Below are positions 1 through 40,574 of a stretch of 64,000 nt of DNA, piece after piece (within the stretch, counting starts at the first letter, position 1; each line of letters opens with the position of its first letter). The DNA comes from Psammoneis japonica. Taxonomy: Eukaryota. The translations under genes were made by a program, and so were the position numbers. The DNA is taken from the NCBI GenBank assembly GCA_008632985.1, contig QPGO01000021.1, positions 496,001 through 560,000 of the forward strand. Direction: 5' to 3'. The notes under the pieces are model-generated. The model saw nothing but the letters and a program-made list of their open reading frames with translations. It was not told where the DNA came from and made no database searches.

Positions 1-182
1 TTTCTGTATTCTTTTGTATCGAATTTCGTATTCAATTTAGAGTTTTCCTATTGAAATCAAAATACCAATTCTTATAAAACCGATCTCACAGAATGTTGAT
101 TTTCACTACGTGCGACTTTTCAACTCTTTAGCCATGGGAGCGGAACGTATCTACACCGGTACAGTCGCTGCAGCAGGTGACA

Positions 183-1291
183 ATGGGTGGTATCGAAGAG
201 GTTGTGGAGTCCCTACCTTACGGCATTGAGGTCAGTTTTTCTCGTGTTTGGCGGTTGTCTCCCGCTTTGAATTTTATATATGTCTCTCATGTCTGTATAT
301 TTCTATATTTTTTTCATTCTATCCGACCTTTCCGTTCACTGTCACAACGATACTTGACGTCACTTTACATGACCCGATGTCAAATTTTCGGCCAACTTTT
401 TTTCAATACTCCCCATAAAACCGTTCCCACTTTTTCGCTCTTCCATGATTTGCGTGACTGATTCAGACTCCTCTCGACGAGAAGCTATGCATGTGCACTG
501 AAGACCTTTATCATGACATGCGCGAACGACAAGTAGACTTTGTGTCACCGGAAACGTACATTCAGAATGATTTGTATCTGCCGTTCAGACGATACCTCGT
601 GGACTGGATATCAGACGTGGGCGAACAATGCCGTCTGCACAATACTACCGTGCACGTGAGCATTCTTTTTCTTGACAAAATCTTTCGTAACCGTGATATT
701 CCTCGCAACAAGTGGCAGCTCCTGGCCACTGCATGCATCACTGTCGCTGCAAAATATGAGGAAGCCGAAGAGCACTGTCCTCCGATTCCTGAGCTACTGC
801 AGTTGACGAAGCTAAGCCATGCGGGTCACACTTCGCTCTCGTTTCGAGATGGAGAGGTTGAAGTTCTCCGTCTATTGGGGTGGAGACTTCGAGCTGTGCC
901 ACCGTTGCATGTCATTGGATATTTCCTTGCCAAGGGCGTCACGTTCGAGAACGACTCTTGGCAGGGACGAGCCCTCATCGAAAAGATTCCCAAGTATGTG
1001 AAGAAGTACGCTGAGTTCTTTTGCAATCTCACTCTTCAGGACTACGTGTTTCAACAATACTATCCGACCCATCTTGCCGCCGGTATTCTTATGGCGTCTC
1101 GAGTAGCGCTTCAGTTGCAGCCACGATGGAGACCAGAGTTGGAGCGATTAACCGGTTATGACGAAGCCAGTATTGTTGACGTGTTTGAACATGTTTGGGG
1201 ATACTACGAGAAGCAGTTTCCTGGACACGGCTCAAGGTCGATTTCGCCCAGGAGTGTTGCCAGCTCACACAACATGTCATCGTTTGACTAG
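183..1291 (+). CDS. Cyclin (cyclin N- and C-terminal boxes; cyclin J-like or diatom-type), 2 exons
   Basis: Cyclin box RRYLVDW...LFLDKIF...WQLLATACITVAAKYEE and C-box PTHLAAGIL. Exon 183-230 (MGGIEEVVESLPYGIE) splices in frame through a GT..AG intron at 231-466 into ORF 491..1291. Confidence 0.85.
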
Positions 1292-1868
1292 TCACACGGT
1301 CGTGCGTTTCGTATTTTACGTTTTGGCCGGCGGAAAGTTGCTCGGTCATACCTGTTTCACTATGTGGATTTGAAGGAAAGGCGTGGAGAGAATGATGTAG
1401 CTATTTATTCCTCTCATCTTTTTCATGCGGCTGGCTTGGTTTGAAACCTTGTCGCCACCCGCTGCTTGACTGTCATTGTTGACAACCCAAAGCACTTTAG
1501 TTATACCCGAAAGTGTGTTGTCACTGTCTAGCAGCTCGTGTACCGGTACATTATTTGATAACGACGGAATAGCGACCGCATTTACCCCTCTTGTAAACTC
1601 GTACTTCCTTATGTTCTCTACGAAACTCGAGCGCTTGTTTAGTTTTCAGTTTTGGAGGGAAAATTGTGACGAGCTTCGGCGTAGGATTAAAAATAACCGT
1701 TCGTGAAGGTTTCAATGTTCCCTGAAAAGTGCGGCAAAATTTTTGTCAAAGAAAAACTGGCGGCAACGCGGCAACCGTTGAGTGAGCACATCCCGTCCAT
1801 GCACCTCGCCTGGCGATCTCCAATCACATCCCTTAGTCTCACTCTTCTTAGTAGTAGTAGCAGATACC

Positions 1869-2767
1869 ATGACGTCCTTGCTGCAAGTCGAACACGAGCA
1901 GCAGCTGTTCCAAAAATCGCTGAAATGGGGACTTTGTGCCTCTGTTTTGTTTCTTTCTGGAACAATCATTGTTGTTCCCTCCGTGTTGTGCGAGATGAAT
2001 CACCGCGTGGCGGAGAACACAAGCAGCAGTCAACGATGCGAAACCATTGCCTCCGTTCTCGCCTTTGTTGGCTGTGCACTCAAGACAGCATCCGTTGTTG
2101 TTGAAATTGTGGTTGATGTCAAACTCAAGCGTCCTGTGGAACACGGGCGACATTGCCATTCTCGGCAATTGACGGATGGAAATCTGACATTGTCAGCATT
2201 GGTCCTGACGGCCATGTTCTTTCAAGGCTTGTACTTTACAATTCGATCCACTGATTGCGGACAAATGCACGACAAGTCTTGGAGTGCATTGAATTTGGCG
2301 GCGAGTTTTGTGTGGCCAGCTTCAGGCTTTCTCATGGTGAAGCATTGCTGTTCGTGCATTCGCCCACATTGCACATTGTCACAACGGCGACACTCGCTGT
2401 CGCAGGATTGAAAATTTTCCAATGCCCCAGTGAGCATCCAACTCTTCACTTGGTTGCATCATGGTCATTTGTTCTGGTCGGAGTGCTCTACGTGATTGCA
2501 GACATTTGGCGTTTTCGCATGGATCCAAAGGAGTTGAACACAAATCCAACAGAACTCGCCAATGATGTCTTGGCACAGTGTGCACAAAGGATGTTGTGCC
2601 ACATGGAAACGAAGACTGAAGCACAATGGTCGACCTTTCACAAAGCAGCAGTGAACGCACTGCCGCAGCGCGGAAACTTGTCGCACGAAACTTTTCATGC
2701 AATGCACACCCTTGCACTCGACTGCAAGGCCCAACACCTGGACCAATGTCCAGTTTCGTGTGGGTGA
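1869..2767 (+). pseudogene. Degraded multi-pass membrane protein gene inside a TpA-depleted block
   Basis: Hydrophobic helices are split across frameshifted ORFs 1782..2411 and 2255..2767. There is almost no Tyr and an excess of Cys/His. No TA occurs at 1870-2231. Confidence 0.45.
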
Positions 2768-3780
2768 GCTAAAGAACATGTTTAGGTGTGCATCTCTTCA
2801 CACTTTTTCTGATGGTGATTTTGTGTGGTGCAGCGGCCATTGGAAGAAACTGGACGAATGCCGAGTTGTCTCCATTGCATTTTCCGTTTCCTGCCCTCTG
2901 TCATTGCATTTTGCAGTCATTGTTGCAAACACCCAGTTACGGATTTTGATGTCATTGTTCCAAATTGGCACAATGGAAAGACACACACCCAACATTGAGA
3001 GACAGACGAAGCATGATTCACTGATGCCAAACACGGCAGATTTGGTTGAGGGACTCACAAGCAGTCGCACACTTTTGAACTTCCTTTCGATCCACTGCAT
3101 GCCATGATGCTGTTTCAGTTTCACTGTTTGTCATGAGAAACTTTGCACTTTTCCATTGTTTCTGATCCCTGGCCTCTGTGTGGGCCTGCTTCAAATCAGC
3201 AGCTTTCTTGTTGAAAAAATGACGACCTCCACCATTTTTTGTTGGATTTGTGGTTGTTGTCACAACCATTGCAGAAACTGTGCCAAGGCTCTGTGTGAGA
3301 TTTTCTTCATCTGGCCACACACCTTGTTCCAGTGCTTGGTGTGCTTCTCTTCTTGCTCTCTCCCCGCGAAAACGCAAAGGCGCAGGCTGCTTCAAAATTT
3401 GTGGGGGGAAGTGGCTTTTCCATCAAGGGATTTTCAGTTGGTCACTGTCTTGATTTCCCTCACTTGCTTTCCCTCACTTCCTTTTGATCCAATGCATGCC
3501 AGTGGCCATCTCAGTTTTGATTGTTGCCTGGGAAACAGTGCCCCAAAACACACGACCTCTGGAGCGTGTGATGATGAAGAAACGCTGAGCAGGAGTCACA
3601 CGATTCAAACCCCAGCAGAAGCGCATGAGTTGCAGGTGCAGTGAGTCTTCATCCAGCATGTGAAAACCCAGCAATCACATGCTTTTAAACTAAGCACAGA
3701 GACAGACTGAACAAAAGCGCTGTCAGTCGTCTTGGCACATGTGCGCATGATGTGATGTACGGCATGAGTTGTGATGAACG
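1870..3780. other. TpA-depleted, TG/CA-enriched block 1
   Basis: About 10 TA in 1.9 kb by eye, against 4-9 per 240 bp in sampled neighbouring genes. Confidence 0.85.
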
Positions 3781-4015
3781 GCGGCCTGGGACACACGGCA
3801 TTTTGTCGCATTTGGCGACATTTTCTTAAATGAATTGATGATTTGTCGCGAACAGACGCGAATTGCGACAAAATGTCCGGGTTGGCGATAAACGGGACAG
3901 AAACATTGTTTAATTAAGTTATGAAATGATTAATGTCATTTATAACCAACCTGAACTTTGGCGATGTCGTTTCAATAAGTGGGGTAATTAACAGAATTTG
4001 GCGATCGATGTCATC

Positions 4016-4113
4016 GACGAAAATTCATCCGACAAAATTTGTCGTATACGACAAAATTTGTCGGACATCCGACAAATTTGTCGGATGTCCGACAAAATTT
4101 GTCGGCATCCGAC
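4016..4113. repeat. Array of near-palindromic CGACAAAATTTGTCG units (left)
   Basis: Several spaced copies seen directly. Confidence 0.85.
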
Positions 4114-4210
4114 AAGACACGACACGACACGACACGACAAGACACGACACGACACGACACGACACGACAAGACACGACACGACACGACACGACACGTCAC
4201 GACACGACGA
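4111..4210 (+). repeat. (GACAC/GACAA)n pentamer tandem repeat
   Basis: Seen directly. It produces spurious DTTRH-repeat ORFs. Confidence 0.9.
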
Positions 4211-4482
4211 CTCACGAACGAAACACCCACGCCCCCGCACACGCTAACCGCTAACGTCTCCGTTGACACTACCGGTATGTCTCTTTTGCGCGATGATGCA
4301 AAGCGACGATCATGCCGCTCTCGGCGGTCTCCATACTCTCGTCAATACCGGGACAACAACACTTCTACATAGTGCAACGGAATGTACCGGTATGTATTGC
4401 TGTACTGTACCTTTTATCAGTACGACTGGGCACTTCTGAATGTTGGGGAGCGTTGCGTTATCGGTATGTCGCAAACGTCCGT

Positions 4483-4702
4483 CTGTCGGCGTTTGTCGGC
4501 TCTTGTCGGCTCTTGTCGGCGTTTGTCGTACGTTGTCGGGGTTTGTCGGGGTTTGTCGGGGTTGTCGGGGTTTGTCGGGGCTTGTCGGGGTTTGTCGGGG
4601 TTTGTCGGATACGACAAAATTTGTCGTACGTCCGACAAAATTTGTCGTACATCCGACAAAATTTGTCGTATCCGACAAAATTTGTCGTACGTACGACAAA
4701 AT
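4483..4702. repeat. (GGGGTTTGTC)n-like decamer array followed by the right CGACAAAATTTGTCG array
   Basis: Seen directly. All units share the CGACA/TGTCG core. Confidence 0.9.
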
Positions 4703-5122
4703 CGCCAAAACATTAATTAATAAGTACAGTCTTCGCCGAAAGTTAAATTCATCATATAGCACTGTAGTTGATATAACGTGTGTGTTTAGGACACGCCATC
4801 GCCAATTAAATGATGATTTTGTCTTATTTATCGCCAACGGTTGAAATTTGTCTCAAAGGGCGTTTTTCACGACAAATCGTCCAATTCATTTATGGGAATG
4901 TCGCAATTGGCGACAAAATGCCGTGTGTCCCTGTCCGGCTGTCCGCAGAAAAACAGGGCCAAGTCGTGAAATGCACGCATCGCGCGCATCGCATCACACC
5001 CGCTCCCATCATTTTAGGAACTCCACAATGATCGATGACAGCGAGCGGTGGCGGTGTCTATCTGAATCTGCAATTTGGCTGTCATGTGATGCACTTCAAC
5101 TGTAACGCAAGATTGTTTCATC

Positions 5123-7393
5123 ATGTTTCGACAGTGTCGGCAACTCCATCGTGTGTCTTTTCATCTACGGCCGATTGGAGGGAATAAACGAGCATCATGC
5201 CTCATTTTTTCTTCTTTCTCGAATTCTTCAACGTCGGATTCCGATGATTCGTCGCCGACACTGTCGCCATGGAATCGCTTGAAAAAGCTCTTTAACGATT
5301 TTGGAATGCCCGAAAAAATATCGAAACACACGAAAAAGACGAAAGTGGTGGTCGACAGCGAGCCAACAACAACAGAAGGTTCCACTTCTCCGCGCCTCCC
5401 AAAGTTCTTTTCCAACGATGAGTTTTCCCCCGAAGATACAGCAGCCGACAGACGACGACTCCATTTTGAAGCTAATCGTCGTATTGTTCGAATAGCGGTG
5501 GACCGTGTTTTAGAGCCAAGTGCGGTAGCCTTGCTTACGATATCCACGTCGGCGGTGCTTGGCATTGCCATTGTCGAAGCGTCCATGCTGACGGTTGAAA
5601 TGCCCTTTATTGAAAGCATGGATGCGGGGCGATTCGTTCTCCGATATGCTGTCGAACAGCTCCTACCATCATGTCACTGGGCTACACGAGATGCGAAGTT
5701 GATTGCCACAGCCGTGGGACTTGACGCCAATACGCTACTACAAAACTTGGATCCACAAAACTTGTCTGCTACAGACGCCGCCACTCTTCTCCGCGTCCAA
5801 ATGTTGTCATCTTGCCGTTGCATGGCGGCGGGCTTTATGCTCTTGGCCCAGCTTGTTCGTGCCGGTACGATTGGTGCGGCTGCCACGGGTGCTTATGAAG
5901 ACCGAATCAAGGCTGGACGGGAGCCTCCGCTCTTGCCACGAAACGATGGTCTCATTCTACGGCTGTGTGGACGACGCTCTAATGTGACTTCGGCTTCGTT
6001 ACAGAAAATGGGCCGACATTTGTTTCCAGTATTTGAAGAGCCAGATCGACTGCATCATTTGTTGTCTCAGTATTCAGACGGAGCCAAAATACCGATCTTT
6101 TGGCGAGTTCGTCCCGGACGATACGGGTCTAGCTACTCGTGGAGAGGATTGCACTTTAATGAAAATTACTTGATTCAGACGAAAACAAACGAGAACGTGT
6201 TAATTCTTGAAGCTGATGCTACCAATGGTGATGACCCATTGGCTCTTGGAGACGTGTCGCTTGACCTTACGATTGATGATGCGTCTCAGGGCTTTCGCAG
6301 GGTTATAGAATTGTTTCAGTCAGCGGCGTCGTCACATGACACCACGTTGCCACCCTTTCGACCCTTGCGTGTGTTTCTGGGAAACTCGCTCGAGACATTC
6401 ATGTCGGGTGGTGGTCATGAATACACCTTGCGTCATCGAATTCGATACGCCAACGAGGTGGATGTGTTGATAGACTCGCGTGCACCCGTCCTCAAGGAAA
6501 TTCTGCATTGGTGTGACCGTGTCGCCGGAGAGGATCGTGTCATCTTGTTCCAAACGAGTAATCGACAATACTTTTTGAGTCTCCAGCTCTTGATGAAACA
6601 TTATGGATACAAGATTTGTGATCCGTTAGATTGGACGGTGGCGAAGCAACTGAGAGAAGAGACTGCAAAGGACGATGGAGAAGCGGATGTTGTAGGCAAT
6701 CACCATGAGGAAAACGATGCATATGAAAACTACGAGTCTCTGCTACAGATTCTTCTTGAGGATCGTATCATGGAGAGTATACCAAGGACAGACACAGAAG
6801 AGGAGACGGTCAAGGATGCTCTCGAGACAGTAGTGACCGATCGAAAAGGTAGCATCATGATGCTATCCAGGCTGCCCCGTCTCGTGTACTACGACAAAAC
6901 GGCAGAGACGCTCAATGCAGTCGAAGCTCTCTTGAAGGCTCGTGCCGTTGATATTTCCAGCTGCTGTGCTCTTTTGGATCGACAAGAGGGCGCACAATTA
7001 ATGAGGGGAATCTTGAAGAGAACACACACCGAACACTGGACGAAAGCTCCATTTGCCACACAAGACGACGACCTGACACCTGCTGGTCATGGTTTACACA
7101 TGATTAGCTCCTCTGCTATTTATGACGCGCTTTTTCGACAAGTTAGACAATGGACTCGCATGGGATACTCGGCTTTGGAAATTCAAAAGGAACTTGATAC
7201 AAGGTATCATCAGATTCTCAAACAGTCACAAGAAGTTTACGAAGCAGTGGTTGAGGTAACTGCATCGGAGGAGCCAGCAGCAGCAGATACCGAAGCCGTA
7301 CCCATCAGGAAGACTTCTGACAAGGATGACATACCCTTGGAGGAGGAGGATGACGACGACGAGGTATTTGAAAGAAGTAAGAAAGATAAGTAG
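5123..7393 (+). CDS. Hypothetical protein, 756 aa, with an Arg-rich N-terminus (possible mitochondrial presequence) and an acidic C-terminal tail
   Basis: Long uninterrupted ORF with ordinary composition. No family recognised. Confidence 0.75.
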   Translation: MFRQCRQLHRVSFHLRPIGGNKRASCLIFSSFSNSSTSDSDDSSPTLSPWNRLKKLFNDFGMPEKISKHTKKTKVVVDSEPTTTEGSTSPRLPKFFSNDEFSPEDTAADRRRLHFEANRRIVRIAVDRVLEPSAVALLTISTSAVLGIAIVEASMLTVEMPFIESMDAGRFVLRYAVEQLLPSCHWATRDAKLIATAVGLDANTLLQNLDPQNLSATDAATLLRVQMLSSCRCMAAGFMLLAQLVRAGTIGAAATGAYEDRIKAGREPPLLPRNDGLILRLCGRRSNVTSASLQKMGRHLFPVFEEPDRLHHLLSQYSDGAKIPIFWRVRPGRYGSSYSWRGLHFNENYLIQTKTNENVLILEADATNGDDPLALGDVSLDLTIDDASQGFRRVIELFQSAASSHDTTLPPFRPLRVFLGNSLETFMSGGGHEYTLRHRIRYANEVDVLIDSRAPVLKEILHWCDRVAGEDRVILFQTSNRQYFLSLQLLMKHYGYKICDPLDWTVAKQLREETAKDDGEADVVGNHHEENDAYENYESLLQILLEDRIMESIPRTDTEEETVKDALETVVTDRKGSIMMLSRLPRLVYYDKTAETLNAVEALLKARAVDISSCCALLDRQEGAQLMRGILKRTHTEHWTKAPFATQDDDLTPAGHGLHMISSSAIYDALFRQVRQWTRMGYSALEIQKELDTRYHQILKQSQEVYEAVVEVTASEEPAAADTEAVPIRKTSDKDDIPLEEEDDDDEVFERSKKDK

Positions 7394-8637: not shown

Positions 8638-9078
8638 GGTGCTGTGTGCTTGTGCGTGATTGCTTTTTTCTTTTTTCCTTTTCGATAGTGGGGTCCTATT
8701 TGCTTTAGGTGTGTCAACTTTCCCTCCAACAACAGATGACGTCAAACAGAAATTTATTCATTTCTGTAGCTTACTGATATCCTCTGTGACAGATGAAACC
8801 CGGAGATTTCGCAACACTGCATGCATCCAAGACACAAACTTGTGACGCGTTGGATTGTTGATGCCAACAAGAGATCGAGTATCCAACGACGCTCACAATA
8901 ACTTGACACCCATCACACCATTTGTGCATAAAAGGAAAAGAAACTCTTTTTTGAAGGACTTCAGACTGAGCGCCTTTAGTTTTAAAAATTTCAGAAAGAA
9001 GCATATCAGAAAGAAGCTAAGAAATCTTTCTGATCAAACGAGAACCGCAGAATGCAACAGGGTTCTCTTCGTTCAGCC

Positions 9079-11387
9079 ATGATGACTCTATCGCGACAAC
9101 AACGACAGCATGCTCTCAAGAAACATGCTTATCTACTAAAAAAGCCGCGTGTCATGTCAACCCTTGCTGCTACCGACAAGGAAGATACGGTCGTGTTGAA
9201 ACCGTGGCCTCGTGCGGTTGTAACGTCCCACGGTGATTATCGTCAAGAGGCCTTTTGGAAAAGCACATTGGAGGACCACTCTATTCCCAGCAGTCGAGCT
9301 TACCAAAGTTGCCCATTCCATCCGTCAAGCAAACGATTGAAACCTTTCTTCCGACCGCTCTACCTCTGGCAGAATCAGAGGAAGAACGCGAGTCTCTCTT
9401 GGAGGCATGTCGTCTCTTTGAAGAACAATCGCAGACGCTTCAGAACGCCTGCACGAACGTCGGGATGGAGAAATGAAGGACTCGTCGTGGTTGCAGCATT
9501 GGTGGAATACGATGGGATATCTTCAGTGCGTGATCCCGTTACGGTAAACGTTTCTTACTTTTTTCACTTTACCAACGATGGCACGTTGCCCTCGAGCAAG
9601 CCACGCAACGTCACAAGAGGTGCGTCGCTCTTGTACGCCACGGCTGAATTTCGCAACTTGGTGGCGAGCGGACAGTGGCCCTGTGATGTGATTGGACGAA
9701 ACAAGACTCCGCTCTGCAGTGTGGCGTACAAGTACATGTTTCATGCGTGTCGTATTCCAAAACGTCAGGAAGATGTCTATGAGATGCATGATCCGAGTTT
9801 GCATTCACATGTCATTGTGGCTCGCAAGGGATTCTTTTTCGCTGTTCAGTTATTTGATGACGAGACAGCAACCACGCCACTGCCTCTTCCAGTCTTGGAG
9901 GAACAGTTGGAACAAGTCATCAAGGAGGCAGACGAACTGTCCATGTCATCCTACCCTGAGCTCGGGTGGTTCACCAGCGACAACCGTGACAACTGGGCGG
10001 ATGCGCGAGAAGCATTGATTCGTTTGGGAGGTAGTGAGATGGAAAAGGCATTGGAACGTTTGGAGAGTGGCGCCATTCTGCTTTGTCTTGATGATGAGGT
10101 GAGTCGGACACCTGGAAGTACTTTCATTGACGTACCGTCGTGCACTACGAGGCCTTTTCCAACCCTTTGAATTCTGTTATTTGTCGCAGGAACCCGTTTC
10201 TCGCAAGGAGTGTGGACAGATATTCTGGCATGGCACGCCCAAGGAAGGACGCAATCGTTGGTTTGATAAATCCATTCAACTCTTTTGCACCAACAATGGT
10301 GTGGCAGGGCTTCAGGGAGAGCACAGTATGGTAAGTATTGTTGTTGTTGTTGTTGTTGTTGTCGAAGAAATATTCGCTCGTACTTTCCTCTCACTCAAGA
10401 CGGATGTTTTCAGATGGATGGTATGCCGGTGGTGAATTACGCTGACCACTTGACCAAAACTGGCTATGCGCAAGCCATGCAAAGGTCGGCGTCGTCTAAC
10501 GCCAGTGCAGATGCCAGTGTTAGCCACATATTTGAAAACACTCCTCTTGATAGTCCTGAACTTGGAGCGCTCGTTGACAAGTGTAAGTATTGAGCACGAA
10601 CGTTTTCGAGCTTTTCTTTTTAATAATTGTCGCAATGATTGGTCTAACCGGCTCGATTCTTTCATTCACGATAGCCAAGAATAACTTTATCAAGCTTGTC
10701 ACGGACCACGCCATGGACGTACAAAGCTTTCATGGCTACGGCAGCAACTTTATCAAAAAGTCAGGCTTCTCTCCCGATGCCTTTGTTCAGGTTGCTATTC
10801 AGGTTGCAACCTATCGTCTCTTTGAAAAGCAGGGTGCAACCTATGAGGCGACTCAAATGCGTCCCTTTCTTCACGGTCGTACCGAAACTACCCGAGCAGT
10901 TTCGACCGAGAGTCAAGCCTTTTGTCAGGCCATGGGATTGGTTCGCAAATACGATGAACACGACGCTGGTGCAAGAAAGCACAAACTGGCCTTGTTGCAA
11001 GACGCCGTGAATGCCCATGTCAAGTATATTGGTGCCGCTGCCAAGGGATACGGTGTAGATCGTCACTTTCTAGGATTGTCGTTGCTCGTCCAGGATGGAG
11101 AGCAGGCGCCAACTTTGTATTCGAATCCTGTTTTTACTCGATCCAAGCACTGGAGAGTTAGTACCAGTCACTTGACGCATCCAAAGTTTGAAAACTGGGG
11201 ATACGGCGAGGTTGTGCCAGATGGTGTGGGTTTGTCGTATGCCATCAAGGCGGACGGATGTGTCTTTACGGTAACTGCGTTGAAGGAACATGGGTGGACC
11301 GATAAGCTTTCTCACTTGCTGGAGGATACTCTACTGGAGATGCGGGATTTGCTCCAAGCCGAAGAGCCACCAAAGAGTAAGCTTTAG
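9079..11387 (+). CDS. Carnitine O-acetyltransferase (choline/carnitine acyltransferase family) with C-terminal SKL
   Basis: Motifs LPKLPIP, NRWFDKS, catalytic EHSM/MDG, SPDAFVQ, YEATQMRPFLHGRTET and GVDRHF. Introns at 10099-10189, 10331-10413 and 10583-10674. Small frameshifts in the 5' part. Confidence 0.9.
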
Positions 11388-11926
11388 TGTGGCCGGACGC
11401 GACAATTTGATCGGGGAAAGGTAATGGTCAGGTCTCGTCGCAAATACACCTACTTTCTGTTTAGAATATGATTTCTCGTTAGAATACTGTTCCCTTGCTC
11501 CATTGAATAAAAATAGTAGGTGCCTACATTGACAAAACAGGATTCACCTACCGAGCAGGGGCAAAACGCATATCATGTCGCACCTATTTTATATCTCTGT
11601 TGTTGATCGTACTGTATTCTTTTAGAGGTCCTCCTCTACTACCGGTACTACTTGGGCTTTCATTCCACCTCGAGGCTTTCCGCTTGCTCTGCCGTGATCA
11701 AGGTCAAAGCAATCATGATCAGTTCTGCTTTTTCGGAACCGTCCACGAACCGATAAGCTTCAACTCCAAGCAATCGAGCTGCAACCCCGACCGCTACAGC
11801 GAACGACAGCAAAAATCGGCATCAGTTTTGGCAAGAACATCCGCAGGTTTTGAATATTTTTTTGTGAATGACTTGATGATACAGAAGCGTAATGTCAGAG
11901 TTCACTTCGGCAGCGGCGGACGCTTC

Positions 11927-12747: not shown

Positions 12748-12833
12748 TCTTTCTCAAACGCTTGTTGCTTCTTCCCTCTACTCCTATTTCGGTTGTCGTT
12801 ATCATCGACCCATCACCCATCAACCTACCGGTA

Positions 12834-14450
12834 CCGCGTCGGTCCGCCTCATCTCGTTTGTCGTCGTGTCTGCGTGCGCGATTGTGCGGTTGCTTCTTGG
12901 GTGTGTGCGCTGCATGCTGCATGCATTGGTCACATCACGCACAACCAGGCAGTTGCTTGGCAGACTCAAAAGCAGAAAGCAAGGTTGTTTCTGATGTGCA
13001 CAAAAAGCTTTGGTGTTCTGCTGCTTTGCAGCAAAAGGATGGCTGAGCCTCTGCCAGCTGCAACTGCCCCGCCCTGCCTTGCCTCTTTGTCAGAAGAGTT
13101 GAGAGTCAGCCACAAAGGAGAGGGGCTCTCTCTTTCGTTGTTCTTTCTCAGGCCTGGCTTGTTGACCGAGTGTGGAAACGCATGCTTGAGCATTGATGCA
13201 CAATGTGCTTTCTTTTGAACACTTCTTCCTCTCACTTCTTGGCCCAGCCAGAAACACACAACCACTGCTCCTGTTGTTTGGCGCGCCAAGGGCAAGCGGC
13301 ACAATGTCATGAAAGATGCAAAACCAAGAGCGGCAAGAAGGCAATGATGGCACAGAGGGAGGTGTGGTGTGTGTGTGACACAACCTTGCTTTTCCATCTG
13401 ATGCTGGCTGGCATGTCCAGCTCCATTGACCACCAGGTTTTTTGTTGTTGAGACCCTCGCTCAGTTTGTGGCTCTTGTGTGTCTCGTGTGCAGTGTTGGC
13501 TGTCTTTCCTTTTGCAAAATGAAAGCAAAGAGCTTCTTTGGCATTTTGAGGCAATGGCATGTTGACTTTCTGAAAAGCCATTTTTAAAAAGCAAAGCCAA
13601 CTCTGGGTGACATCAGGTGAAGTGCAGCGTGCAGCCTGTCAGTCTCTCAGCCTGTTCCTGGTGCTGTCTCTCTGTGCTGTGTGGAGCCACGGCATGTTGA
13701 AGCCAAACCAGCCACTGCTGAAGTCTCTTGGCCTGCTGTTTGTGCACTGTTTTGCCATGAATTGGTGCTGAGCTGGCTGCCACTGAAGTCTCTCAGCTCG
13801 TTGTCACTTGCTGTGTGAGCTGCAAGCTGCTGCTGGGCCAGATGCTGCGAAAACAAGCTGCGCGCTTTTTGTTCGGTCTTTCACACAGCGTGCTCTCCTG
13901 CCAGAGTGTTTCCAATGCAAGCTGTCTTAACTGTTTGCTGCAAAAATCTGCAGAAAAACTCAGCACAGCAGAGTGTTTGCTGTGCCCCCGGTGCAAAGCG
14001 AGAGCTTGTGGGGCTGGTGCCGGTGTGCTCTCCAGACAAAAAAAGGGTTTTCACAGTTGCTGTGTGGTCTTGCATGGCAATGGAGATTGAGCTCCATTGC
14101 AAATTGTTTGCCAAGTCAGGGGATGTCCAAGTCTTCCCCTTGCGCTTTGCTTTTTCACAGACACGCTTTTCAGCGTGGGGCTGGCTGCTTTCTTTCATCG
14201 AAGCAATGTCTGTCAGTTCTCTGAGTGGCACCCTCGCTGTCACATTTTTCCCACCCACTCCAGTCAGCCAGGACATCATGACCCGCTTTGCCTTCAGACA
14301 TTGTTCAACCCCTGGTTTGCTTGGTTTCTGCAAAATGAGCGAAAAATTCTTCAGGCAGCAAAAAGAACTTCAGTGAGGACTCCAACCCCGCGCCTCTTGT
14401 CTTCGCAAGAACAAAAAGCACAACGCGCGTTGTGCAACTCTTAGTCGCGT
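12834..14450. other. TpA-depleted, TG/CA-enriched block 2 (degenerate sequence, probable repeat relic)
   Basis: Only about 3 TA seen (13585, 13928, 14442). ORFs lack Tyr and are rich in Cys/His/Gln. Confidence 0.85.
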
Positions 14451-15062
14451 TCGTCCAGTGTGCTGTCACTCTGAAACACAGTCGTTTCTACCCAAGCAAA
14501 GTCGGTGCGTGTTGGAAAACAACAACACCATGATGTTCGACAACAGCAAAAAGAACAACACCCGGGATTCCAACGTGGTCCCCCACCGTAGTACTAACCG
14601 GGCCAGAAGATGCTTAACTTCGCTGAGCAGACGGGAAGCGGTGCTGTCATCTTTGTATGGTCGTTCCTGCCTTAAGTAGCGATAAATAAATATATAAACA
14701 CTGAAATTGACATCTGTACGTAACTCCAATCTCTTCCGCGACATCTACTGCCACACTGACAGAAGGAGAGCTCTTTAACTCCTTACTAAGTTAAAGGAAA
14801 ATATGCATTGAATCAACTTCCCAAAAGTAGAGCTCTAGAGTCTAGCAGTAGTGAGCAGCAGGTAATGACGCTGCCTTTCCTCAACATTTCGTTTGTCCGC
14901 CTATAGAGTGCTGGTAGCTAGGTAGAGCTGCTGCTAGCCAGGTATGCTCGAGAGTCCCTCAGCTCAATGCGCCAGCATGCTAAATTCATACAGTCATTCG
15001 AGAGTGTCTGCATCTAGAAATTGTTATTAAAGGTCATCTAATGTTTACCTTGCATTTATCTA

Positions 15063-18000
15063 CTAGACGATTTCAACTTCACCGTTTGGAGGAGCACCAA
15101 CGCCATTGTTACCTTCCAGTGGCAATTCATAATCGCTATGCTTCGCCTTGAAATTGCGTAGTTTCTTCTCTATCCTTGTCTTTTCTCGTCTTGACGGCAG
15201 CAACTTCATGCCGTTTAGCGTTACAACAAGCATGACGCCCACGTCTGCCGCAATCGCCGTAAGAAGTGTCATTTTCCCAGCAAAGGTGAAACCGACAACT
15301 ACCAACTTGGCAACGACACTAATAAAAATATTCTCCTGAATAGTGACAATAACACGCGCACCCATCTTGATTGTGTACAGCAGCTTGGAAAGGTTCGAGT
15401 CCATGAGAGTAATGTCACTCATTTCCATTGCCAGCGCGGCGCCTTCACCCATAGCGACACCAACGTCGGCGACAGCTAGAGCCGGAGCATCGTTCACACC
15501 ATCACCGCACATGAGCACGTGCGACTTTCTCGAACATTGAGTACAGCAAGAACAACGACTGCTGCTATTGACTGGCGCCTTTAGGCTTCCAATGAAATGG
15601 AGTTTGTCTTCTGGTAAGAGCTGACTATGAACGTCGCTTTCGAGAATACCAACCTCTCGTGCAACTGCCCGGGCAGCTCCGTCTCCGTCGCCCGTAAGCA
15701 TGATTACCTGAATCCCACCATCGTGCAACGACCGAACGACTTCCTTGGCTTCCTCTCGAATAACATCCGTCACACAAAACGATCCAATAATGCCGTCTCC
15801 TTCGATACCAATAAAACCAACAGTGCCTCCCTTGCGATTCCAATCTTCTGCAGCCTGCTTATTAATCAAGGGAAGGGACTGGAGCATACCAACACGGTGA
15901 AACAATCGTTGGTTGCCCACGTACACCTGCTTTCCATTCACATTGGCCGTCACACCTTCACCCTTTAGAATGGAATGATCCGTCACTGCGGCATTCGCAG
16001 GAATCGATAAACCCTCCTTTTTCGCAGCGTCCACCAGTGTCTGAGAAAGAGGGTGACTAGATGGAGCCTCCATTAATGCAAGCAATTCCAGGCTGTTGTA
16101 TAAAATCAAAAGTGAGATTCAGACAAGAGGGAAGAAAACGCATCGTCAATCACTCAAATCTACAACAATATAAAGAAACTCACACTTGCTCCCGCGTATG
16201 ACTATTGCCAATTTTATCCAAATGAACCACTTGAAAGTTCCCTTCCGTCAGTGTTCCCGTCTTGTCAAAGACAACCTTGTCCACCGATCCGAGTGCCTCC
16301 AATCGTGATCCACCCTTGACAATGACACCCCGTTGTGCGGTGGCTGCCAATCCTGCCGAATACGTCACGGGCGTGCTAATGGTCAAGGCACAGGGACACG
16401 CAATGACAATGATAATGAGTCCATTCAGGGTCCAGTAGCGTCCCTCCTCTTTACCAAAAAACCACGGAACGGTACACATGAGACCGGCAATCAAGACAAC
16501 AATCGGCGTGTAGGCCTTGGCAAAGGAATCAATCAATTTTTCCGTCGGACTGCGATTGGCTTGTGCTTCCTCGACGAGTCGAATCAAGCGAGACACGGCC
16601 GAATCTTCCACGGTCGATGTGGTGCGAACCAAGAGTTGTGTCGTTCCAATGTTAATACTTCCACCCGAAACGGCATCGCCCGCCTTTTTCGTAATGGGCA
16701 AGGCTTCACCCGTCAATGAACTCTCATCCACCGCCGAGGTTCCCTCCACCACGATACCATCGGCAGCAATCTTATCCCCCGTCCGTACCGACAGAGTACT
16801 TCCAATGGGAACCTTATCGGCGGGTACAATAACAATTTCCTTGGTGGTCGGATGTACGACATTGGCATGATCGGGACGCAAACTGACAATGGCCGAGAGT
16901 GCCCTGCGTGCCTTGGCGGTAGCGCGTGCTTCCAAGTATTCCGAAACGGCAAACAAAAAGGAAACCGAGGCGGCTTCNNNNNNNNNNNNNNNNNNNNNNN
17001 NNNNNNNNNNNNNNNNNNNNNNNNNNNNNNNNNNNNNNNNNNNNNNNNNNNNNNNNNNNNNNNNNNNNNNNNNNNNNNNNNNNNNNNNNNNNNNNNNNNN
17101 NNNNNNNNNNNNNNNNNNNNNNNNNNNNNNNNNNNNNNNNNNNNNNNNNNNNNNNNNNNNNNNNNNNNNNNNNNNNNNNNNNNNNNNNNNNNNNNNNNNN
17201 NNNNNNNNNNNNNNNNNNNNNNNNNNNNNNNNNNNNNNNNNNNNNNNNNNNNNNNNNNNNNNNNNNNNNNNNNNNNNNNNNNNNNNNNNNNNNNNNNNNN
17301 NNNNNNNNNNNNNNNNNNNNNNNNNNNNNNNNNNNNNNNNNNNNNNNNNNNNNNNNNNNNNNNNNNNNNNNTGAGGGCATGCCAAATGTTCGACGGCTCC
17401 ATCAATTGCCACGGTCGCTTGCAATCCAAATCGTGCCAACAATTCCACCATAGCATCGGCCGTGGACAATTCGGGATTGTGTTCCACCTTGACGGTTTTC
17501 GATGGCACGTGTGGATAAAACGCACGTACTTGTGTACGAATGTAATTTTGACGAAAGGCCTTTTCCAAAACCGATACATGATTGAGTGAGAGATTGGCAA
17601 TCACTAGAGTCGATTCGACGTATTTGGATCGTGCCACCGACAAGGCCGTTGTTTGACGTTCGACAATGTCTTGTTTGGCATCCGTGGCCAATTCCGTTTC
17701 GTATTGTTCCTTGAGCAATTCTTCTTGGAGTGTGGCAGCCGAAATTTGTGTCACATCGTGTTCGATATACACGACACACTCGGACACATTGACACCGATC
17801 CGTTTGACTCCGGGTAATTTTGTGAGAATGATTTGCAATTTGGAAATATCCCGTTCCGAAATGACTCGTTTCAAATGCAACGTGGTACGTCCGACATTTT
17901 CCGGTAAAAAATGATCCAAACTCGCACTACCACCATCCTTGTGTACCTTGGCACCAAATCCCTCCTTATTGAGTGCATCTGCACAAACACGTGCCGAAAC

Positions 18001-18677
18001 CAAACTCGCATCGTGATGAACATAGACCATTTTCGTGGTAATGTTGATTTGAATCTTGGATACACCGTGTACCTTGCGTAATATTTTTTGAATCGATGGA
18101 CATTCCGATGCACAACAAATGCCTTGCACGTGTAGAATCGAACGACACAACGTCGCTTGATTGTTATTGTTGTGAGCATCATCCACAACTTGTAATTGAA
18201 TCGACGTTCGTGGTGTAAATCCCACCAATGTTAAATTCTCCATCAAGTGTTGTTCGGTCGTTTGTGTATCATGATCGACTAGGACGGTTTTCGTTTCCAA
18301 TGTTGCCATGACACGCGTCACTCCCGGCAGGGCGTCAAAATGGATTGAATCAAGAGTACTTGCGAGGCACAATCGAAATTTTCAATCACAAGTTTGGTAC
18401 GAATCATAGAGCCATCGTCTTCATCAGAAGTGTCTTTGTTTTGAATGATTAAATTGTTTGGAATGGGCTCCTTGGGTTCGGGATGATCGGCACATGTCGT
18501 ACATTCACCACAAAACATGTAATCGGGATGATACTGACCACCCTGTTGAAGTGGCATGGATGCTAATTGTTCCGACGTTGGTGAGACCGGGGGAGTTACA
18601 ATGTTGGTAGACATGGTGGGGAACGGTGGTGGTGGTGGCATGTTATTGCTGCTGTTGCTGCTGTTGGTAGAAGTCAT
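15063..18677 (-). CDS. P1B-type heavy-metal (Zn/Cd-type) ATPase with several N-terminal HMA domains
   Basis: Motifs GICCASE (HMA), DESSLTGE, intramembrane CPC, DKTGTLT, SSHP, MLTGD and GDGVNDAPAL. Intron at 16093-16183, frameshift near 18360, and interrupted by the N gap. Confidence 0.92.
16978..17371. other. Assembly gap (394 N)
   Basis: Run of N. Confidence 1.
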
Positions 18678-24394: not shown

Positions 24395-24885
24395 TCAAAA
24401 TTGCTTGACAGTATCAACAATAACACTGATCGCCAAGGGGGTGATTCCGAATGCCCAAATAACAGCCAGAATTGCATCCTTCTTCTTCAACTGTGTATAG
24501 TCAATCTTGGGTGCTCCTTTCTTTTCGGCGTTCTTCTGGTACGCCCAGTCCATGGCATTGTTGAGCTTGGCATCCATGTTTCCCGTTGCCTCGGCCCGGC
24601 TAACTCCAGCGGTAGCCATGTATTTTGAGAACCGCCTGCTCATATTCATCTGCATTCGTCAGCCGAGTGAAAAAGGGGGAAGGACCGTGTCGAAGCAAAG
24701 AACCGATTGGATCATAAGGATAAACACCATCGTCGTCGGGGGCTTTTTCCCACCGTTCCGTTTGCTTGTCGAACGTGGGCTTGCGGGCAAAAAGTGGCGA
24801 CGACTTGCTGCCGCTGAACCTGCTTTGAGGAGCAAACGCAGCCACCGAGGCGCAAAGAATAGAAAGCAAGAGGGACACGCATCAT
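24395..24885 (-). CDS. Small plastid-targeted membrane protein of unknown function (apparent indels near 24620 and 24872)
   Basis: Signal peptide followed by ASVAAFAP cleavage motif. ORFs 24600..24878 and 24395..24655 join at YEQAVLK/YMATAG. C-terminal transmembrane helix. Confidence 0.75.
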
Positions 24886-25180
24886 CGTTGTGGCAAATTT
24901 CTGTCTTGTTCTGTCCACAGATAGTAGCAACAACAAAAACTGTGCTATCTTGCGTCGTCATTGTCACAACGCAACATCCACGGTGCGACGGCGGATGACG
25001 TGTTCACTTTCTCCGGTTCATTCCCGAAACAAGACTGGATTCGCGACTCAAAAGTTCCCTCCGACCCCTTTGTTGAGACCCAATGCCGCACATGCCACGA
25101 CAAAACCGCCCAGGCTTAAGTGGCGAGACAACTTCCAACTTCAGGTCGAAAGCATTGGGCTTGTGGAGTCAAATAAGGTG
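24845..25180 (+). repeat. Dispersed direct repeat, copy A (5' end and upstream region of the plastid-targeted gene)
   Basis: Shares AAAGAATAGAAAGCAAGAG, GATGACGTGTTCACTTT, GACTCAAAAGTTCCCTCCGACCC and AAGTGGCGAGACAACTTCCAACTTCAGGTC with 38200-38617. Confidence 0.9.
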
Positions 25181-25189
25181 TGGCGCTCA

Positions 25190-28100
25190 CAATCTCCTTT
25201 GCAAAAAAACGTCATGCCTCGAGGAGCTGCAAGAGTGTGTTGAGTGATCAAAATGATTTTTGGCAGCACAGCAAACAATGTGAGCAGACGTTGTTGTCCC
25301 TGACAGATGACAGGGTGTTTGCAGGAAGATCTCTCTGGTTCTTTCACACCAGCAGCACACTGAAAACTCTGGCAGTGCTGGGGAGCAAGGGCGCCCAACG
25401 ATGGCACAAAAACAGACAAAAAGGCAGGGCGCACACATGCACCCAGACTGCGTGCGCACAACTCCTTGACACTCAGTTTCTGGGCTGTGCAGATCACACA
25501 CAGAGTTTGGCACCAGCTGAAGATTCTTCCTGCTGCCTCCTCCTGGCCACAGAGAGGGGCCCACTTGAGGCTGCTTTCCTGCGCAGCTTCCACATTGCTG
25601 GGTTGAAGTTGTCTTGTGTGGCTCTTTGTGCCAGCCACTGGTGGCGCAGGCATCACCACAACAGAGCACAGTGCAGTGCCTGTTGCACACACCAGCATCC
25701 TCTTCAGACCAGCATGCCCCACAACCCAGCATCTTCTGTGCTGCAGAACAATCTGTTTCAAGAAATTGGTGTGTGTGTGCAAAAGTTCTGCACACACACG
25801 CACTTTTTTGCTGCATGGTGGCCTTGAAGGTGCCCAAGAGCTTTCTTGTGGATGCTGCTGCTGCCAGCAGCAAGTGCTGTGGACAGACATTGAATTCCTA
25901 AAAAAGACAGACAACATCAATGTTGGAGGCCACATGCCTGGCATTTGATTGGATTGCTTCATTCTCAGTGAACCAGTCAGCACAACCCCCAGAGTGTTTG
26001 GGGTGCTTCTTCAAGCAATGATCTGTGATGCCCTTTTCAGTCCAAGGCACCCCAGCAGAACATCATTTCAAGGGTCAAATCCCACATGTGGTCAACACTG
26101 TCCTCTTGCATGTTGCCCTTTGTGAACTCTTGACTCACTGTGAATGAAGCTGATGCTTCAGAACCCCCCAACAGCTCAAAAGCTGTCAACTGATCATTGA
26201 CCATCTTTTTCAACATGACCAGCAAAAAATGATGGAAATGTCCCTCATTGCATCAAAAGTGGCCAGAGTGCCAGTTGCATGGACAGCAGCCCAATGATGT
26301 TTGACTTCCAACAACTCTTTTTTGCTGGGACAAAAAGCAACAAAGTGTGGCAAGACTTGGCCCAACATTGAGGCTGTCCTGCTTCAATCTGGCATTCTTT
26401 AATGGCATTGAAGGCTGGTGCATCTGATGGGGGGGTTGCCCTCAGATGACAGAAGCAAGCTGTGGAATTGCTTCTTGAGCAGCAGGACACTGTGACAACA
26501 TGCAAGCACTGGCAGAAGAGAAAATGAGACAATCTCTCAAGAGATCTGATCAAGTCAGCCAAAAAGGTCTCACGAAAATCCACAAATCTACAAATCAGAG
26601 CAGACAAACTGGCACCCTCCTCTGATCTGCTGCATCTGTCCAAACAATGCAGGCAGGTCACAGACAACAGACAGTGTGCACAACAATGTGCCAGGAGGAA
26701 GGAAGCCTTCCAGAGGCAAGGTTGCAGACCAGACACAACAAAACAGAAAGGTCAGGCCAAACACAAAAACAATGTGGGGCAGCAACACAGATGCAAGGAG
26801 GCATCATTGACAAAAAACATTGTTTGAAGCATCCCACCATCATCTGGAGTGCATGGCAGGCCAAGAGCTTTGTTTGTGATGCCAGCGCCAGTGTTGATGA
26901 TGCAAGGGACACATCACAGGACAATGTGACCAGTGCCTTTTTTTTTGTCTTGTTGAGAGCAGAATGTTGACACGGCACAAGTGCCCAGTCAGGATGCAGT
27001 TTTGTCTCAGCCAGTGATGTTGGTTGTGAGATTGTTGTCAATGTGACTGAGCCTTGTGCTGATGAAAGGGAGACAGTGGCACCAGCCAGCACACATCCAC
27101 AGCCAGCAGCTGGAGGAGGGGATGGATTGGCATGACAAGTTCACTGAGTGGACACAAAAAGGCAAGGTCAGATCTCAGCCCAGCCTCTTGCAGTTGATGT
27201 CCCAGCACTTGACAAAATTTGAGTGCTTGGCTGTGCCTTGCACCTTTTTAAAGTGAAGCAGTGGGTGGGAGCAGGTGCACATGAAAATTTGGACTGGGCC
27301 ACAACAACAACTCAGCAAGCAAGTTCTGACAGCTGAAGCCACAGGACTCAGCCAACTTGTCACATTCTTGCAAGTCTTCATCAGGGCCAACTTCAGAGCA
27401 CATTGCAGGCACCCAAGTCAACAGGCAGCAGAGCACCCCTGCAGTCTTGAGCAGGTTTGGTGGCAGCAGGAGTCTCCCACCCATGTGGTGCGAGCACAAA
27501 ATGGATGCAGCCATGGTGACATGCAATCAAAATTGAGTTGTCACATTGACAAGCATTGATCCATGCCATTGAACTCAGTGTGCAAACCAAGGCACTTGAT
27601 GAAGGCAAGTCTTTGGATGGCAGTTGAAGTGCTCCAGCACCAAGCAGCTCAAAATCTTGGTTGCAGCAACAGGTTTGGCTGGCAGAGAACTTTCATGTCA
27701 GCTCAAGAGCAGGCATGCTTGTCATGACCCATGCTTTGAAATGGCAAGATTGCATCTGGCAAGACACCATCAGCACCCTGCTCCTGCAGGAAACTGCGAG
27801 CTGGATCATGACCTTGAAGAGCCCAGTGCATTTGCAACCAACCAAGTTGATTGTGCGTGCACATGCAAGAACACCAAGGTTTTGACATTTTTTGCTGAGT
27901 TTCTCCCTCGTGGAAAGCCACACAATTTTTGCACTGGAACTCAACTCACAAAAATGCATTCTCAATTGTCACAACTTGTTCCCCATTGATGCAAGGTGCC
28001 ATGCTGCATTGATCATTGACCACACTGCCTTTGGAATGTTCTCCCACTCATTGCAGCAGCACTGTGAGTGGAAAGACTCCAAAACAAAAGAGTCCGGGTC

Positions 28101-36370: not shown

Positions 36371-36461
36371 GGCGCGGTAATGAGGCACTGGCAGAGTTTA
36401 ACAAGACATTACACCGATCCTTTTCTATAGCTAGCTTCCGATCTGCTGTAGCTGAGTCACG

Positions 36462-38089: not shown

Positions 38090-38199
38090 GATTGGCGTAG
38101 AGGTCTGCGCGATGTTGTTTTATTTCCACTTCCCGACAACGGGTTACTGTGCTGTGCGGTACCCAGTGATACTTATTTACTTACTTGCAAACGCAACCA

Positions 38200-38299
38200 C
38201 TGAGGCCAAAGAATAGAAAGCAAGAGAGCACGCATCATCGTTACGGCAAATTCCTGTTTTTTCCTGTTAATCAGCAGCGTAAGAATGTGGCATCAGGTG

Positions 38300-38330
<31 letters not shown>

Positions 38331-38617
38331 TGTGTAGTGTCTATTTTGAGTAGGTTCAGGTATCAGCGTCGTCATTGTTGATCACAACATCATGACCCAA
38401 ACAAAACGGTGACGATGGATGACGTGTTCACTTTTTCCTTTTTCAATCTGGAAATCCCCAAACAAGACTGGATTCACGACTCAAAAGTTCCCTCCGACCC
38501 TGCTCCGACCTGCGTTGCGGCCTAACAACGCCACGACAAAACGGCCCAAGCGGCAAGTGGCGAGACAACTTCCAACTTCAGGTCAATAGCATTGGGTAAA
38601 TGGAGCTAAACAAGGTG
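38200..38617 (+). repeat. Dispersed direct repeat, copy B, containing a (GT)n microsatellite at about 38297-38335
   Basis: Colinear similarity to 24845-25180. Confidence 0.9.
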
Positions 38618-39204
38618 CTTTTGCTATCCCTTATGGAGAAAGTGGTTTTGTGTTGTCTTTCAAGACACAGAACCAAGAGGCTGGAGAGTGTAGTCGTGGT
38701 TCATCACATTGCAGACTGGAGTGAACCAAGCTCAAAGCTTGATGGATAATGCGAAGAAGAAGTGAACGTGTTTCATCCCATTTCAATCTATGTGTCTGAG
38801 ACGCTTGCGGTGGACTTTCTTTCAATGAAAGCGGTGTTCGCATGCTTTGCGAAAGCTTTGCGCAGATTCCATGAGTCCTGAGCCATTGAAATACTCTAGC
38901 GATGCAGCGGACATTTCTAATAAACATTGTTATCAGTGACAGATGATAGGGTATATACGTATACAGCCCAAGTGGTTACTTCGTTTCTGGCACTTGTGAA
39001 TCTTCCTCGACACTTTCGCCAGTGACAACTGAAAACTGGCGATGGGGCGTAAAAACTAATACGGAGGATGAAAGTCGAAAGCCAAACTACACATGAATCC
39101 TTGACGTTTCACCGCTCCAATCTAGTGAAACGATTTCTGAATACGTCTTGGCAGTCTCGACACAACGTCTCTCCATTGGAGACAACGCTTCTGGACTGTG
39201 CAGA

Positions 39205-40330: not shown

Positions 40331-40574
40331 GATGAACGAATCGGTTTTACTCTCTCAAGAGCTTGCGAGAGCGTTTAGAGCTGTGTGCGTTTGTTGGCGT
40401 ATATGGTATGGAGACAGAGCGAGTGGGAAGATAAAAAAAAGCGTGTCAGCTTTGGCAACCTTTGCCGACAGCGGACAGCGGCGACATAACAATGAACTCA
40501 TTGCACCATCGCACATCGCGCATCCACCGCGTAGATACCGCGATGATTTTTGGCGCGCAGCCACCTACCGGTAT

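Follow-up and report, generated by a model that had tools for sequence, protein, structure and literature searches.

We analysed a window of 64,000 nucleotides (contig QPGO01000021.1, positions 496,001 to 560,000; "the window" denotes this whole stretch, and all coordinates refer to it). Three blocks of the window, here called R1, R2, and R3, have almost no TpA, and TpG and CpA reach 1.6–2 times expectation in them. The first block, R1, is a single-copy tract of 1,820 bp with a gene-like reading frame at 1869–2764 in its left part. We consider it quite probable that two processes produced its present composition, namely a regional mutator directed at TpA and a slower decay of CpG in the core of the tract, with the left part of R1 (R1a, 1866–2767) forming a fringe over a probably dead gene. 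The evidence consists of the composition of R1, the balance between dinucleotides lost and gained, the direction of change in a paralogous sequence pair at the edge of R3, the nesting of CpG-poor cores in TpA-poor tracts, and the codon usage of the frame.

Composition of R1 and the nested CpG-poor cores

The tracts were found with a sliding dinucleotide table over the window, and TA and CG (TpA and CpG in the counts given below) were segmented separately by maximum likelihood (Table 1). Where R1 has 6 TA, 72.3 would be expected at the background ratio of the window, and the lowest TA count among 3,893 background windows of 1,820 bp is 47. TA-free gaps of 367 and 748 bp occur within R1; outside the three tracts, the longest such gap measures 258 bp. 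The first gap extends from a TA at 1865 to the next at 2232, with none in 1866–2231. A preliminary description of this DNA had reported no TA in 1870–2231 and 16 CG but 0 TA in 1981–2220, and our dinucleotide listing agrees exactly with these counts.

The ratio of observed to expected counts (o/e) in R1 is 0.05 for TA, 1.62 for TG, and 1.75 for CA, the background values for TG and CA being 1.22 and 1.19. Relative to background, R1 lacks 69 TA and 34 CG (103 together) and has gained 66 TG and 42 CA (108 together). At the same time, the number of pyrimidine–purine (YR) steps is 452, with 448 expected, and the G+C content stays at 0.48. Because the deficit of TA and CG approximately equals the excess of TG and CA, the loss in R1 corresponds to transitions inside YR steps, and the gain of both TG and CA indicates that both strands were hit. 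The mass balance of R3 is similarly even, with 953 TA and CG missing versus 927 TG and CA gained, and 2,644 versus 2,669 YR steps.

R1 is present in an independent DNA contig from run X1, which is 11,055 nt long, has a depth of 62, the same as that of the flanks, and matches window positions 1–3813 apart from two substituted letters, a single-base insertion, and the loss of 22 nt at 1294. Given this agreement and the flank-like depth, R1 is real and single-copy and does not represent an assembly artefact. At 85% likeness, no other contig maps onto R1, and a BLAST search of R1 and R2 against the window that was blind to transitions (purine/pyrimidine alphabet) gave best scores of 40 and 33, which do not exceed the reversed-sequence nulls of 40 and 41. 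One of the differences between the X1 contig and the window lies at position 1853, 13 bp to the left of R1 and within a (TAG)n run, where the contig has G and the A of a TA stands in the window. Here two data sets of one organism differ by a change from TpA to TpG; being a single case, it is an anecdote.

The left and right parts of R1 differ in their CpG content. In R1a, 46 CG are present with 53.5 expected, which is normal for background windows of 902 bp (29–96, median 47). In 2768–3685 CG is low, with 19 versus 48.4 expected, fewer than in any of the 4,321 background windows of 918 bp (minimum 30). The preliminary description spoke of CpG as retained, which holds for R1a but not for 2768–3685. 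It had also argued that the loss of TA is not a by-product of CpG decay; indeed, about 31 of the 34 TA expected in R1a are missing, compared with about 7 of the 53 CG. Since R1a lost TA and not CG, whereas the adjoining CG-poor core (R1b) lost both, the two losses are separable in space.

Each of the three TA-poor tracts is wider than the CG-poor core that it encloses; this nesting is seen at five of the six edges, with offsets of 55–820 bp. In R1, the core is non-coding, and the reading frame occupies the long left fringe. The left fringe of R3 shows the same gradation when it is compared with the paralogue discussed below: two of 10 TA survive there, and 11 of 17 CG. Both results agree with the suggestion of the preliminary description that R1 represents a less advanced or weaker stage of one common process. 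Clear CG depletion in the window is confined to the TA-poor tracts, with a possible mild exception in the ankyrin gene beside R3.

The direction of change can be followed at the left edge of R3, which includes a hypermutated partial copy of an ARM-repeat/zf-MYND gene. Its partner lies 13 kb away; only one of the two copies is mutated, and the other was taken as a proxy for the ancestral state. The pair is 87% identical outside R3 and about 62% identical within it; a purine/pyrimidine alignment, which is blind to transitions, scores 215, compared with a null maximum of 49. None of the 41 TA sites of the paralogue inside R3 has been kept, 22 having become CA and 11 TG (33 of 41 converted), and of its 52 CG sites three were kept, 21 became TG, and 19 became CA. 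Inside the tract, the pair differs by 330 transitions and 83 transversions. In the MYND-finger remnant, both Tyr positions of the finger are Cys in the mutated copy. The preliminary description had proposed to look for such replacements in a paralogue or orthologue of the frame at 1869–2764; no relative of the frame was found, and the change from Tyr to Cys was seen on the MYND-finger pair instead. In this pair, TA is lost by transitions out of ordinary host-gene sequence. In the unmutated gene, a WWE-like exon at 37781–38119 is possible, as noted by eye only.

Some further features of R3 were noted. An inverted pair at 27847–28043 and 31278–31466 reaches a purine/pyrimidine score of 71 (null maximum 49) and may be what is left of a DNA transposon whose inverted ends were long; it brackets an open frame, 29189–29707, which is the sole one in R3 with a gene-like codon score. 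None of the 40 open frames of R3 reaches the curated cut-off of a Pfam family, and a Pfam search with 53 open frames of the three tracts returned matches at chance level (expectation value E at least 0.017), all under the curated cut-offs. A strand asymmetry considered for R3 was dropped: TG and CA fluctuate locally in their raw numbers, but composition-normalised values are balanced. In the ankyrin-repeat gene beside R3, CG o/e is 0.39–0.50, TA o/e is 0.33–0.39, and CA is raised, which is either its natural composition or a partial erosion of an apparently intact gene.

On its right, R1 is followed by a non-autonomous terminal inverted repeat (TIR) element resembling a miniature inverted-repeat transposable element (MITE); about 100 bp separate it from the end of the TA-poor tract. 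The palindrome CGACAAAATTTGTCG occurs seven times in the subterminal regions of the element, which also has an (ACGAC)n-type array at about 4110–4220. Contigs of the element have depths of 1,249–4,660 versus about 60, corresponding to roughly 20–75 genome copies, and the other copies diverge exactly at 3788 and 4931 (loose contig ends); a second copy within the window was not found. The preliminary description had placed R1 next to this element, and both its perfect ends and its depth confirm that it is real, but not that erosion started from it. Its CG o/e is 1.8–1.9 and its TA o/e 0.44–0.89, that is, it is not eroded. Because it is uneroded and the tract ends before reaching it, the element is not the source of the erosion, and the intactness of an element of 20–75 copies beside the mutated single-copy R1 argues against copy number as the trigger, contrary to mechanisms of the type of repeat-induced point mutation (RIP).

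Table 1. Features of the window and their positions.
Feature	Position	Strand	Remarks
R1, TA-purged single-copy tract	1866–3685		6 TA vs 72 expected; TG/CA o/e 1.62/1.75
R1, segmentation	TA-poor 1870–3684; CG-poor 2690–3714
R1b, CG-poor core of R1	2690–3714		21 CG in 1,025 bp; TA-free; no frame with coding signal
First part of frame	1869–2336	+	Frame 0; ATG at 1869, open to TGA 2409–2411; hydrophobic transmembrane-like segments; normal CG, 0 TA
Frame break	2337–2411	+	Coding signal moves from frame 0 to frame 2; frameshift or putative intron
Second part of frame	2342–2764	+	Frame 2; TGA 2765–2767
R2, second TA-purged tract	TA-poor 12835–14439		2 TA; CG-poor core 12910–14384
R3, largest tract (11.4 kb)	TA-poor 24950–36374		CG-poor core 25460–36214; TA o/e 0.03, CG o/e 0.10
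Hypermutated ARM/zf-MYND copy, left edge of R3	24832–26414	−	MYND-finger remnant 25628–25801
Unmutated paralogue, ancestral proxy	38187–40077	−	Part of ARM/zf-MYND gene
ARM-repeat/zf-MYND gene	37781–40354	−
TIR element, non-autonomous, MITE-like	3788–4931		22-nt perfect terminal inverted repeats, 69-nt imperfect arms
Cyclin gene	458–1291
DUF6739 gene	5090–7393
Carnitine acyltransferase gene	9034–11387		Verified GT..AG introns of 84–92 nt
5S rRNA gene	14550–14668	−	Rfam 100.8 bits; directly right of R2
Copper ATPase	15063–18381	−
Ankyrin-repeat gene	36750–37500		Beside R3
Subtilase gene

The reading frame at 1869–2764 and neighbouring genes

The stop codons TAA and TAG are impossible without TA, so the tracts are full of long open frames (at least 100 aa: 10 in R1, 55 in the three tracts), and the length of a frame proves nothing. 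Coding signal was scored with a codon model; nine confidently identified genes of the window, their TA converted in silico, served to train it. For the segment 1869–2336, frame 0 has a score of 0.062 and the five other frames range from −0.035 to −0.161; for 2342–2764, frame 2 has 0.061 and the remaining ones −0.014 to −0.173. In the controls, held-out converted real genes have a mean score of 0.081 (standard deviation 0.051), and off-frames have a mean of −0.120 and a maximum of 0.042. Taken as whole open frames with stops excluded, the two parts score 0.045 and 0.034, the null having a mean of −0.04 and a standard deviation of 0.03. With light CpG conversion in the model, they rank second and third among the 55 open frames of at least 100 aa, and with heavy CpG conversion the second part (ORF2) drops to fourth place. 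No frame in 2768–3685 scores above 0.01.

The residue content of the frame points in the same direction as its codon usage. Tyr accounts for two of 297 residues (0.7%) and Cys and His together for 9.4%; the nine window genes contain 2.4% Tyr and 5.5% Cys and His, which become 0% and 8.2% after in-silico conversion. In absolute numbers, the frame has 12 Cys and 16 His, where about 6 and about 10 would be expected from the nine reference genes. Transmembrane-like segments occur at 1.0 per 100 aa versus 0.34 in control frames, although there are three such segments only. The X1 contig has no insertion or deletion at the frame break.

A Pfam scan of the frame gave no match. HMMER searches against 1.84 billion representatives returned two matches with E of 0.001 or lower, which were judged spurious, being internally repetitive proteins to which the match extended over 10 and 6 separate stretches. 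Word-index searches with ORF2, at near and at longer lengths, detected no homologue, and comparison of the frame with viral contigs and metagenome contigs detected no relative. An AlphaFold2 model of the 180-aa frame, calculated without an alignment, has a mean predicted local distance difference test (pLDDT) score of 43 and is uninformative. We judge it rather likely that 1869–2764 is what remains of a genuine coding gene that matches no known family; that gene is most likely dead.

The other genes of the window are given in Table 1 and are mentioned here where something further was observed. The closest database relative of the DUF6739 protein is 56% identical to it. In the carnitine acyltransferase gene, a contig of 1,789 nt from run X2 (given as "DNA?") covers 9363–11409 and skips three intervals, two of them GT..AG; since it skips introns, run X2 behaves as a transcript (complementary DNA) assembly. 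Contigs of this run cover the genes flanking the tracts, and none lies on 1603–3738 or 12817–14418, a gap that we do not take as silence. The 5S rRNA gene has a contig depth of about four times single copy and thus belongs to a dispersed multi-copy family. A scaffold gap, a run of 394 N at 16978–17371, is located inside the copper ATPase gene.

Proposed mechanism and alternatives

In the two-process account, R1 would be single-copy nuclear DNA exposed to a region-targeted mutator. Acting on either strand, this mutator would cause A:T to G:C transitions at TpA and so leave TpG or CpA in its place. The chemistry may, by analogy, be adenine deamination in DNA. A second process, which would turn CpG into TpG or CpA, would be slower and narrower, probably 5-methylcytosine deamination, and restricted to the cores of the tracts. 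The core of R1 would then be the non-coding stretch 2690–3714, and the frame 1869–2764 would lie in the fringe, where the TpA process alone would have acted. The frame itself would be what remains of a protein-coding gene whose codon usage is host-like, and its Tyr codons, like other words that contain TA, would have been altered.

Several observations weigh against this account or parts of it. For R1, the changes are deduced from composition, with neither an ancestor nor a paralogue of R1 for comparison. The right edge of R1 is not nested: its TA-poor segment reaches 3684 and its CG-poor segment 3714, level within 30 bp. If the ankyrin gene beside R3 is eroded, its CG loss would equal its TA loss, a misfit with a strict order in which TA goes first. 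In the ARM/zf-MYND pair, all four transitions are frequent in every context, and TG and CA are frequently swapped between 25231–26414 and 38600–40077 (24 of 86 and 22 of 81); part of the pattern is therefore plain old transition-biased neutral decay. The pair suggests a fast exit from TA and CG superimposed on this neutral decay, in which new TA and CG arise and are soon removed, and the swaps would require repeated passage through TA or CG intermediates and thus a long-lived state of the tract. As to the frame, the open frame 29189–29707 in R3 scores equally high (0.05), and with heavy CpG conversion the R1 frame 3021–3422 on the minus strand scores 0.035, level with ORF2. The relic reading draws on codon statistics, no homologue having appeared in any search made. 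The preliminary description took 1869–2764 for an ordinary multi-transmembrane gene with Cys and His in place of Tyr. That the sequence was once coding finds moderate support in the codon scores and in the two Tyr among 297 residues, but the frame is broken near 2340, and Cys and His make up 10–12% of every open frame of the tracts, so that their abundance is common to all of these frames and not specific to this one.

Could 1869–2764 instead be an intact, functional orphan gene for a membrane protein, with one intron, that tolerates a TA-poor zone? Its codon usage is gene-like in both frames, its CG content is normal, its ATG stands at the very start of the TA-poor tract, and it has an excess of transmembrane-like segments. 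In addition, verified introns in the window measure 84–92 nt and have GTGAGT or GTAAGT donors, and a 98-nt GTGAAG..AG interval, 2337–2434, would join the two frames into 267 codons. Such an interval is not diagnostic, however, because 105 GT..AG pairs would reopen a frame across the break. About 31 of 34 expected TA have been lost irrespective of codon position, the scarcity of Tyr relative to the nine genes would imply many radical replacements, the purge of TA runs 900 bp past the stop codon through sequence without coding signal, and 1.84 billion representatives contain no homologue; taken together, we regard an intact gene as unlikely. A single coupled system that removes both TpA and CpG, for example a deaminase complex acting on A and C in the same marked chromatin, seems to us just as improbable. 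It would account for the confinement of clear CG depletion to TA-depleted tracts and for the very low CG o/e in R3, down to 0.10, and ADAT2 enzymes that edit A and C in DNA are cited in a preprint on the alga Bigelowiella natans (Mettrop et al., bioRxiv 10.64898/2026.01.13.699255). Against it stands the loss of TA but not CG in R1a next to the loss of both in R1b. Moreover, A>G and T>C changes make up 230 of the 231 new mutations reported from the hypermutable regions of B. natans, and C>T is essentially absent (10.64898/2026.01.13.699255). Methylation-driven decay of CpG is, as a matter of general knowledge, a sufficient and common cause of the second loss.

Two further alternatives appear far less probable. 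Foreign or selected DNA that avoids TA itself, through avoidance of nuclease or transposon targets or for RNA stability, would agree with the lack of homologues and with the association of such tracts with viral and transposon DNA made in the preprint (10.64898/2026.01.13.699255). Yet avoidance is equal over coding and non-coding parts and over both strands, viral contigs yielded no relative in two scans, host genes match the codon usage of the frame once their TA is converted in silico, and the paralogue pair shows TA being lost by transitions out of ordinary host-gene sequence; we consider this explanation very improbable. Even slightly less credible is a retrocopy of RNA hyper-edited from A to I by an ADAR-like enzyme, which is suggested by the preference of ADAR for A after U as stated in the preprint (10.64898/2026.01.13.699255). 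A single edited strand would give a gain of TG only, whereas R1 gains CA as well as TG (+42 and +66), the Cys and His excesses of the frame are about equal, and the changes at TA in R3, 22 to CA and 11 to TG, affect both strands. At the ends of R1, neither a poly-A tract nor a target duplication was seen.

The two-process account, which we prefer, gives the window a wider meaning. The window shows an end state with hardly any TpA, an unchanged number of YR steps, and a CpG-poor core within each tract. R1a would be a zone where the TpA process acted alone, on a frame that has remained gene-like. Should the DNA come from a lineage other than Bigelowiella, the process would be wider than one species, and the nesting would provide an order of events and a link to methylation. 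A bolder extension, which we find possible but doubtful, is that the tracts are in a heritable, chromatin-like domain state in which both self-complementary YR steps are unstable, with the TpA mutator reaching further or sooner. Such a domain could be seeded in a core, for example at 2690–3714, and creep outward, destroying single-copy genes (1869–2764 and 24832–26414) outside Bigelowiella. If this were true, mutagenesis would spread like heterochromatin, and "TpA first, CpG later" would be a clock for silenced DNA. On the practical side, tracts without TAA and TAG yield long false or dead open frames rich in Cys and His, which gene predictors will call orphan proteins.

Comparison with known systems

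In methylated DNA, CpG decays to TpG and CpA by deamination of 5-methylcytosine. The cores R1b, R2, and R3 resemble such decay in that CpG appears to have gone to TpG and CpA, but this process cannot remove TpA, and it is without action in R1a. RIP of ascomycete fungi, which turns CpA into TpA and thereby raises TpA (PMC2621366), is similar as a local hypermutation by transitions only, with ruined reading frames and a dinucleotide bias as its result. Its effect is the opposite, however, as TpA has been removed here (o/e 0.05) and CpA and TpG have been raised (1.6–1.75). RIP also targets duplicated sequence, whereas R1 is single-copy, its neighbour with 20–75 copies is untouched, and only one member of the duplicated ARM/zf-MYND pair is mutated. 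The footprints of ADAR and APOBEC enzymes share with the present tracts the clustered, context-dependent transitions of deamination type and are viewed as defence (10.64898/2026.01.13.699255). They are strand-specific and based on RNA or single-stranded DNA, in contrast to the window, where both strands of a resident chromosomal tract are equally affected.

The closest likeness is to the hypermutation of integrated DNA of nucleocytoplasmic large DNA viruses (NCLDV) and virophages in B. natans. In the library searched, the preprint on that alga, from 2026, is the sole report of eukaryotic TpA loss with a gain of TpG and CpA, and TpA-directed hypermutation of resident DNA has been reported once so far. 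According to the preprint, 231 of 302 nuclear point mutations of mutation-accumulation lines fell into two integrated viral regions, and each of the 230 A>G or T>C changes mentioned above occurred at TpA (10.64898/2026.01.13.699255). A de novo mutation rate raised about 1000-fold is counted among the criteria for tracts of this type. The preprint describes 124 TpA-poor clusters rich in CpA and TpG in the genome, mostly with unannotated open frames, as well as 324 predicted coding sequences low in TpA, again mostly unannotated; an ADAT2-like adenine deaminase is the proposed enzyme (10.64898/2026.01.13.699255). The thresholds used there are Rho values of at most 0.43 for TpA and at least 1.52 for CpA+TpG, a cluster comprising at least three consecutive 1-kb windows.

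The tracts described here differ from those of B. natans, as far as the preprint's account of them goes, in several respects. Scans with Pfam and of viral contigs found neither viral nor transposon homology in R1. The purge is near total (TA o/e 0.03–0.05), versus 0.45 in the NCLDV region of B. natans. The CpG-depleted core is nested in the tract, and the word CpG is absent from the main text of the preprint. Gene structure differs as well: a transcript contig over 5034–7649 follows the DNA for 2.6 kb without an intron, and introns measure 84–92 nt here, whereas B. natans has exons of 159 bp on average and 7.8 introns per gene (PMC12730881). Together with the 56% identity between the DUF6739 protein and its best database relative, this makes it probable that the DNA belongs to an organism other than B. 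natans. R1, at 1,815–1,820 bp, is too short for the rule of three windows, which the 11.4 kb of R3 satisfy, and changes at TpA are visible site by site in R3, through its paralogue (33 of 41), but in R1 by composition and mass balance only. On the other hand, the tracts share with those of B. natans their sharp bounds, their size in the kilobase range, and open frames that are mostly unannotated. In R1, the loss of TpA is matched by a gain of CpA and TpG on both strands, and its values, 0.05 for TpA and 1.62/1.75 for TG/CA, lie beyond both window thresholds. In composition, R1 carries the same signature as the TpA hypermutation of B. natans.

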